10,732 nucleotides of DNA from Escherichia coli (GTDB lineage Bacteria > Pseudomonadota > Gammaproteobacteria > Enterobacterales > Enterobacteriaceae): assembly GCF_003334335.1 (NCBI RefSeq), contig NZ_QOWQ01000064.1. The stretch is one strand, 5' to 3'. The notes under the pieces are model-generated. The model made no database searches. It was not told where the DNA came from and saw only the letters and a list, made by a program, of their open reading frames with translations. Shown in pieces: positions 845 through 1,013 of the stretch (the stretch's first letter is position 1; each line of letters starts with the position of its first letter). The position numbers were made by a program, and so were the translations under genes.

Positions 845-1013
845 TATCGCGTCCTCAACAATGAGTTTTGTGATGCAGTGCCTGGTGCCTCCAGGTGACG
901 TTAACCAGTTAACAATTAACGCCGGATACAGAGAATCCACCCATAACACTGTTTTTGGTTTTAACTGTTCCGCGTGCGCTTAGCCGCATTCACCGCATCA
1001 CAAAATTCACTTT

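Follow-up and report, generated by a model that had tools for sequence, protein, structure and literature searches.

The TTAAC repeats between dicF and dicB form a hairpin of a conserved, STnc100/PasD-related RNA module that probably serves RNase III processing

The 10,732-nt stretch of Escherichia coli DNA analysed here (the window; contig NZ_QOWQ01000064.1 of assembly GCF_003334335.1) belongs to a Qin-like lambdoid prophage and carries a dicF-dicB operon on its minus strand. The small RNA (sRNA) DicF, including its terminator hairpin, lies at 1019..1070 (minus) and was recovered at full length by the Rfam model RF00039 (72.5 bits against a gathering score of 48). The dicB coding sequence occupies 656..844 (minus), starts at 844 and specifies 62 amino acids, which matched the NCBIfam model NF049927 CellDivInhibDicB with 132.8 bits (cut-off 100); matching E. 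coli genomes annotate the locus as dicB/ydfD. A 471-nt query running from dicF to dicB found matches in 4651 of 5426 complete E. coli genomes, with at least 80% query coverage in 3833. From DicF to the dicB start codon the spacer measures 174 nt, and the positions of the two model matches bear out a preliminary description of this DNA, which had placed a group of TTAAC repeats at 897-923 between the two genes. On the other side of DicF, about 340 nt in the interval to ydfC (1100-1410, minus) are non-coding. The 5' end of the 190-nt DicF precursor, an RNase III site, should by arithmetic fall within this interval near window position 1208.

On the plus strand, the 27 nt at 897-923 read GACGTTAACCAGTTAACAATTAACGCC, exactly as first quoted, and contain three TTAAC units starting at 901, 909 and 916, with spacings of 8 and 7 nt. 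The units at 901 and 909 are full GTTAAC palindromes. The framing had to be corrected in one respect: the operon runs on the minus strand, and the transcript across 897-923 reads GGCGUUAAUUGUUAACUGGUUAACGUC. Overall, TTAAC occurs 41 times on the two strands of the window, compared with 20.6 ± 4.5 times in shuffled sequences. Three or more same-strand units within 20 nt appeared in 1 of 5000 dinucleotide shuffles, a figure that is weak on its own because the motif was picked after it had been seen. As judged from alignments, the reality of the feature rests on comparative evidence rather than on such chance statistics.

The preliminary description had read the repeats in two ways, as a site bound by a protein or as an element of RNA structure with an effect on dicB translation, and had proposed RNA folding and a conservation check across dicB operons. 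Upon folding, the 27 nt formed one hairpin, here called P4 (897..923, minus), both in the minimum free energy (MFE) structure of the single sequence and in the RNAalifold consensus. P4 consists of ten pairs and a 7-nt loop: the 5' arm GGCGUUAAUU (923-914), the loop GUUAACU (913-907) and the 3' arm GGUUAACGUC (906-897). The partial dyad CGTTAA...TTAACG noticed earlier is correct and is the core of this stem. The outer two TTAAC units make up the arms and the middle one the loop; since GUUAAC is self-complementary, these parts and the strand that pairs with the loop all resemble one repeated word. As to conservation, the lack of which was named beforehand as what would refute the observation, the outcome is mixed. 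The site is near-invariant in E. coli dicB operons. Farther away, the hairpin and its loop are kept while the triple repeat is lost.

The manner of this loss separates the two readings. Over 34 distinct spacers of the window's class (class B, defined below), the P4 positions were paired in 98.8% of cases, and four of the ten pairs had changed on both sides. The arm words were swapped with compensation in six loci (L149, L186, L182, L218, L246 and L282). Pairing was retained, for example, in the arm variants GACUGUAAUU/GGUUACAGUC (L149), GGCGGUAAU/GUUAUCGUC (L182), GGCAUUAAUU/GGUUAAUGUC (L218 and L246) and GGCAUCAGUU/GGCUGGUAUC (L282, from Klebsiella). In L149, L186, L182 and L282, one or both arm TTAAC words are absent and the loop GUUAACU is still present. 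Words such as TGTAAT/TTACAG or CATCAG/GCTGGT stand in place of TTAAC in relatives with the pairing intact, and family-wide we counted 75 different arm pairs among 95 non-redundant elements. What is selected, as far as the alignments tell, is the pairings and not the TTAAC word. Moreover, three stem positions carry G.U pairs, for which the opposite strand would give C.A. Compensatory changes together with strand-specific G.U pairs imply that selection acts on the minus-strand RNA.

An alternative is that the repeats are DNA binding sites for a regulatory protein, for example an operator-like array or sites for a nucleoid protein. The likeness of the three words, their spacing of 7-8 bp and their partial dyad symmetry would suit such an array, and one weak plus-strand promoter-like match overlaps the repeats. 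Nevertheless, we consider this highly improbable: the arm words change in relatives with pairing kept, the three G.U positions would be C.A on the other strand, and the site lies about 1.2 kb inside the transcription unit with no minus-strand promoter found nearby. Among the relatives, the words were not conserved independently of pairing potential and strand, as they should be in an operator-like DNA array. Of the two original suggestions, the RNA structural element is upheld by the fold, the compensation and the alignment to STnc100 described below, and the protein-binding site is dropped; the TTAAC cluster belongs to the structure of an RNA rather than to a DNA site for a protein. Two further candidates were rejected. 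An internal dicB promoter at the repeats found no minus-strand site in the promoter scan, which returned only the one weak plus-strand match, and the resemblance to an rRNA boxA came from a match to TTAACAATT on the non-transcribed strand.

P4 is one arm of a module of five helices (P1-P5) around a five-way junction, which spans 1018-852 on the minus strand. The 5' strand of the closing helix, formed by P1 and its extension (UUUUUAAAGUGAAUUUUGUGAUGCGGUG; 991..1018, minus), begins at the DicF terminator U-tract in the MFE structure. It is followed by the family motif GGUGAAU and the P2 hairpin GCGGCUAAGCGCACGC (972..987, minus), which is found in the MFE and RNAalifold structures, aligns to P2 of STnc100 and is almost invariant in class B. 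The P3 domain (924..971, minus) has a 3-bp base (971-969 with 926-924) that covaries as GGA/UCC, GGC/GCC and GAC/GUC, and this base encloses a hypervariable insert whose length and sequence differ by lineage. Within the domain, the strand AGUUAA (961..966, minus) is complementary to the P4 loop and invariant in the 34 class-B sequences. Past P4 comes P5 (881..895, minus), a 5-bp hairpin CCUGG-AGGCA-CCAGG inside the family signature UCACCNGGAGGCACCNGGCAC, the middle pair of which covaries between U-A and G-C. Finally, the 3' strand of the closing helix (CACUGCAUCACAAAACUCAUUGUUGAGGA; 852..880, minus), placed by MFE and pair counts, ends with the dicB Shine-Dalgarno sequence GAGGA (856-852). With about 27 bp, the closing helix thus links the U-tract of the DicF terminator to the Shine-Dalgarno of dicB; its MFE blocks hold 15, 5 and 7 pairs, with single mismatches between them.

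We quantified the support for this structure by aligning the 34 distinct class-B (dicF-type) spacers and counting pairs with the structure taken from the window. Standard pairs occupied 95.3% of the cells, compared with 34-45% (about 40%) when the partners were slid. Twenty pairs had changes on both sides, against 5.2 ± 1.9 in shuffles, and 0 of 500 shuffles reached 20, although the alignment rows are related, so that the shuffle controls are generous and the significance is overstated. The closing helix alone was 91% paired over the 34 sequences and had 13 pairs with both sides changed. RNAalifold, as an independent prediction, recovered P1, P2, the P3 base, P4 and P5. The leader folded with -64.8 kcal/mol (z = -4.9 against shuffles), and the spacer took the same structure alone or together with DicF.

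The spacer might instead be coding, since a 97-aa GTG-initiated open reading frame (949..656, minus) exists in frame with dicB and would extend the DicB N terminus. This reading is barely credible. In relatives, frame-breaking indels occur and the GTG is lost between 949 and 844 while dicB is kept; for instance, one copy (L092) has GCG instead of GTG and is 2 nt shorter, and another (L012) carries a 7-nt deletion. The title of Cam et al. 1988 itself speaks of DicB being translated from an in-phase internal start.

The loop of P4 has a partner outside the hairpin. Its bases UUAACU (912-907) are complementary to AGUUAA (966-961), 50 nt upstream and just 3' of P2. This strand (961-966, minus; CAGUUAAA) is a fourth TTAAC-like unit, missing from the list in the preliminary description. 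Within class B the two strands are invariant except in L246, where AGUUAAU/AUUAACU shows a compensated seventh A-U pair. Because of this invariance, the covariation support for a pseudoknot comes from the wider family. In class A, the stand-alone class introduced below, strand and loop differ by lineage yet remain complementary: CUGGUG/CACCAG, AUCAGC/GCUGAU, GAGCCACAA/UUGUGGCUU and ACUGGAU/AUCCAGU. We compared 82 distinct strand/loop combinations from Enterobacterales family members with permuted partners. At least five contiguous complementary bases were present in 87% of the matched combinations against 32% of the permuted ones. The mean longest complementary run was 5.84 when matched and 4.03 ± 0.11 when permuted (maximum 4.37 in 1000), and the mean duplex energy was -7.04 against -3.66 ± 0.23 kcal/mol (z = -14.7). 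Altogether, 56 different pseudoknot helices were seen across the family, and these comparisons provide good evidence that the family has a pseudoknot. It is absent from the Rfam STnc100 structure line, and a 2026 preprint on PasD/STnc100 does not mention it; it would be new to the family as far as that structure line and the literature searched are concerned. In the canonical E. coli sequence, an alternative pairing of ACAG (968-965) with CUGU, present in the MFE structure, competes with two of the pseudoknot pairs, and the 3-bp P3 base, the full 10-bp P4 and the pseudoknot may be sterically tight together.

The whole arrangement resembles a known family of prophage sRNAs, STnc100/PasD, the PasD members being from pathogenic E. 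coli. When Rfam was scanned in E-value mode, 1007..867 (minus) matched STnc100 (RF02076) with 34.5 bits (E = 1e-5), which does not reach the gathering score of 47. Other dicF-type copies scored 37.0 to 43.0 bits, and all five dicF-type copies that matched, the one in the window included, stayed under the threshold, whereas two stand-alone members scanned gave 132.4 and 207.7 bits. In the covariance-model alignment, P4 and P5 are the last two hairpins of the STnc100 model, with P4 on the model hairpin GGGUUcaGU..CugAACUC, so that the family has a matching hairpin at the position of the TTAAC cluster. The window follows the helix order of the model (closing stem, P2, variable hairpins, P4, P5), contains both signatures, GGUGAAU and UCACCNGGAGGCACCNGGCAC, and has the STnc100-type pairing of the strand 3' of P2 with the P4 loop, a feature derived here. 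Location in Enterobacterales phages and prophages is also common to both. On the other hand, P2 here is GCGGC.../...CGC instead of CCCC/GGGG, P1 is about 27 bp long, and the module sits between an sRNA terminator and a coding gene. The Rho-independent terminator that a stand-alone sRNA gene would have is absent from the window copy, where the dicB Shine-Dalgarno and ATG come next. Because the curated score is not reached and the element is no stand-alone gene, we file it as a variant of STnc100 and not as a member. By these sequence comparisons, it is a divergent, operon-embedded relative of the STnc100/PasD family.

A scan of the P5 signature UCACCNGGAGGCACCNGGCAC against viral contigs and one genome per species gave more than 200 loci among the matches listed, in Escherichia, Citrobacter, Enterobacter, Klebsiella, Salmonella, Pantoea, Erwinia, Serratia, Rahnella and Cedecea. 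They comprise both of two classes. Class A is STnc100 proper; its P1 is short, and most copies carry a terminator of their own about 25 nt past P1. In class B, to which the window copy belongs, the element comes after the terminator of an sRNA, either DicF or a DicF-like one with a different 5' part; its P1 is extended, and a ribosome-binding site follows directly. The genes downstream of class B encode DicB, the FtsZ inhibitor KilR (161.5 bits), a YdaE-family protein, TciA, or a Rha/antirepressor behind isrK and C4 RNAs. In the P1-like phages P7 and D6 (L081 and L082), the spacer occurs without dicB, 38 nt upstream of tciA/terB in a tRNA-containing operon. Since class B falls under the Rfam threshold, a whole sub-class has been missed by annotation, and the family is broader than annotated. 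The dicF-dicB locus is thereby linked to a widespread prophage RNA family; the known functions of DicF and DicB are unchanged by this.

Several features of individual copies were noted along the way. DicF-like sRNAs occupy the roughly 90 nt before the class-B element in L091, L148, L149, L152, L157, L182, L244 and L246. They have in common the 3' half of the terminator (..CCGCCCUUUUU) and the downstream module, and their 5' seeds differ, for example UGUGUAGUCUUGGCGG or UUUCUGGUGAUUCGGCGG, a pattern that suggests seed swapping on a common chassis. In Citrobacter braakii (L244, 2575-2763, minus), the class-B element is directly followed by isrK (67.5 bits) and C4 antisense RNA (80.2 bits), with the Rha/antirepressor gene downstream of these, and a long mechanical open reading frame there is for this reason partly non-coding RNA. 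tRNA genes often adjoin family members; the tRNA starts about 14 nt past the closing stem in L245 (Citrobacter braakii) and L301 (another Enterobacterales genome). Two or three tandem family copies occur in several genomes (L305, L284, L297). Among dicB loci from IMG/VR, L012 has lost one CACCAGG unit, which destroys the P5 hairpin, and in L070 the homology starts only past the 3' strand of the closing helix; dicB is intact in both.

The published processing of DicF bears on the function of the module. As relayed in the accounts of DicF in PMC5069750 and PMC9438474, both citing Faubladier 1990, a 72-nt DicF results from RNase III processing of the full-length transcript and exceeds the terminated 53-nt form by 19 nt. 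Counted from 1019, these 19 nt bring the published 3' end to about 1000/999 at the same locus, midway along the 5' strand of the closing helix, by an arithmetic good to a few nt. RNase III requires about two turns or more of mostly uninterrupted double-stranded RNA, and the closing helix offers 27 predicted pairs, which makes it a credible RNase III substrate. In the literature searched, neither a defined structure nor the STnc100 family nor the TTAAC hairpin is connected with the cut that yields 72-nt DicF. A separate RNase III site upstream of DicF, which forms the 5' end of the 190-nt species, was set aside as a different site that does not involve the 897-923 region.

Our preferred explanation, to which we assign a probability of roughly 0.7, is that the TTAAC cluster is P4 of a structured RNA module whose closing helix is cut by RNase III, P4 being architectural. 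In the dicF-type version, P1 is extended to about 27 bp, from the U-tract of the DicF terminator to the dicB Shine-Dalgarno, and a cut in this helix, known from the literature cited above, would release the 72-nt DicF. Allowing for a 2-nt stagger, the opposite cut should fall near 870/869. The two cuts would excise a core of about 130 nt that contains P4 and shorten the leader of the dicB mRNA to about 25 nt, freeing its Shine-Dalgarno from the helix. P4 and the pseudoknot would lock the core and bring the distant strands of the processing helix together. P4 most likely has an architectural role in a module whose processing parts DicF from the dicB mRNA, and the element as a whole probably serves RNase III processing between the two. 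If so, the RNase III-dependent 72-nt DicF gains a concrete structural basis.

Phage early operons are known to place RNase III helices between cistrons, as at the R1-R5 sites of the T7 early region and in the lambda N leader. There, too, a long imperfect helix lies between two units of an early transcript; once it is cut, the products are separate and the downstream gene has a remodelled 5' leader. The helix in the window differs in closing a conserved five-way junction with a pseudoknot and not a simple hairpin, and in having an sRNA as the upstream product. For sRNAs matured by RNase III from a longer transcript, ManS of Salmonella and CJnc190 of Campylobacter supply a precedent; they have no sequence or structure relation to the spacer, where such release is our inference.

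The same closing helix could act differently, by hiding the Shine-Dalgarno so that read-through transcripts, whether RNase III acts or not, yield no toxic protein, which would make the module mainly a translational repressor of dicB. In the MFE structure, GAGGA (856-852) indeed pairs with the terminator U-tract as the last seven pairs of the closing helix, and dicB is described in the literature as toxic and tightly controlled. However, these seven pairs are all A-U or G.U (three G.U) and form the least conserved part of the helix, with 3-9 of the 34 sequences unpaired at each position. Occlusion comes from the closing helix and not from P4, which lies 40 nt from the Shine-Dalgarno. Furthermore, the module also precedes kilR, the ydaE-family gene, isrK/C4-ant and tciA in other phages, and there the helix stops 15-25 nt short of the Shine-Dalgarno. 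Because occlusion is absent before these genes, translational control is not a conserved property, and we rank processing above it as the conserved function; as the main role of the module, repression seems rather doubtful. An effect of P4 or of the module on dicB translation, as the preliminary description had imagined, is plausible in itself. Before kilR or other genes, the outer closing helix is rebuilt with other sequence, for example AAGCGAAUUUUG/CAAAAUUCGCUU in L182.

Compatible with processing is a further possibility, namely that RNase III frees the core (about 999 to 870, minus), with P4 inside it, as an sRNA that acts in trans like STnc100 and PasD. In such an RNA, the hypervariable P3 insert would serve as the seed, and the conserved core would provide a stabilising scaffold. 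The core shows homology to STnc100/PasD, and these stand-alone relatives are reported to be Hfq-associated base-pairing sRNAs with differing seed regions; P3 is hypervariable and the scaffold conserved. If RNase III cut the closing helix on both strands, a discrete RNA of about 130 nt would result. Against this stand two points: no RNA species of about 130 nt was reported in the literature searched, and the dicF-type class has neither a terminator of its own nor the U-tail that is the usual Hfq handle. We regard a trans-acting core as possible, with the odds against it.

The foot of P4 showed an unexpected regularity at the DNA level. In loci from IMG/VR and RefSeq, homology to the spacer often starts exactly at (G)TATCCGG, at window position 929/928 (minus), 5 nt 5' of P4. 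The junction sequence is (G)TATCCGGCGTTAATTG (L001, L003, L015, L026, L036, L323 and L324). At least six different left-hand partners are joined there. All are opposite-strand genes of the rightward operon, some of them truncated at the junction, and they include a replication O-like gene, the DnaC-like ydaV and ydfU/DUF968. Both dicB-type and kilR-type prophages have such junctions, and comparison with two intact left parents revealed a microhomology of only 3 nt, GTA. On the evidence of these alignments, each junction marks a deletion in which the immunity region, the sRNA and the 5' half of the module were lost. No mechanism, enzyme or motif that would account for their precision was found.

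These deletions raise the question of whether the GTTAAC-rich quasi-palindrome stands out as a DNA recombination or deletion hot spot, or as a module boundary. The exact joining of at least six partners at the P4 foot in two prophage types, with GTA as the only microhomology shared with two intact parents, speaks for it. Yet the hairpin begins 5 nt away from the junction, neither an enzyme nor a motif could be linked to the site, and a hot spot leaves the compensatory changes, the G.U pairs and the family-wide pseudoknot unaccounted for. The junction may be a by-product of DNA hairpin formation. We therefore hold a hot spot to be quite unlikely as the explanation of the repeats and retain the RNA module with P4 as a structural arm.

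A more ambitious reading, which we put forward as speculation that is unlikely to hold in full, would make the dicF-dicB spacer a third operon product: a compact RNA with a pseudoknot, belonging to the STnc100/PasD superfamily, which RNase III would cut out of the transcript and which phages would reuse as a junction between early-operon cassettes, with a deletion hot spot at the P4 foot. The cassettes, across Enterobacterales phages, would be the division inhibitors DicB and KilR, C4/isrK-antirepressor units and tciA. On this view, the junction and loop nucleotides would be invariant because they build a specific tertiary fold, one that binds a protein or ligand or withstands nucleases, and the DNA at the P4 foot would be a site-specific hot spot for deletions stripping immunity regions from cryptic prophages. 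For the function of the conserved core, the spacer is a convenient system, as dicB and kilR offer easy toxic read-outs (filamentation).

DicF can also be drawn as pairing with its own leader. The 5' seed (CUGGUGACGUU, 1049-1071) is complementary to 967-989 and 890-913 (minus) of the spacer; at the P4 3' arm, the seed portion GGUGACGUU is complementary to AACGUCACC. The corresponding duplexes have -23.9 kcal/mol in the P2 region and -22.6 kcal/mol in the P4/P5 region, compared with -17.0 ± 2.6 kcal/mol for shuffled seeds (p ~0.01). RNAduplex with whole upstream sRNAs gave long internal loops, and the seed-spacer pairing is not conserved in spacers behind non-DicF sRNAs. We consider pairing of the DicF seed with its own leader unproven.

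Elsewhere in the window, the immunity region (2238-2876, minus, and 2920-3210, plus) is unlike that of K-12 Qin. The repressor at 2238-2876 (minus) has 212 aa, a DicA-like helix-turn-helix (40 bits, under the cut-off) and a LexA/UmuD-type self-cleavage domain; K-12 DicA is without a cleavable bond according to the literature. A divergent DicC/Cro-like open reading frame (2920-3210, plus) faces this repressor. Farther along, a full-length sok antitoxin RNA of a hok/sok-type locus lies at 7470-7645 on the plus strand (Rfam, 120.5 bits).
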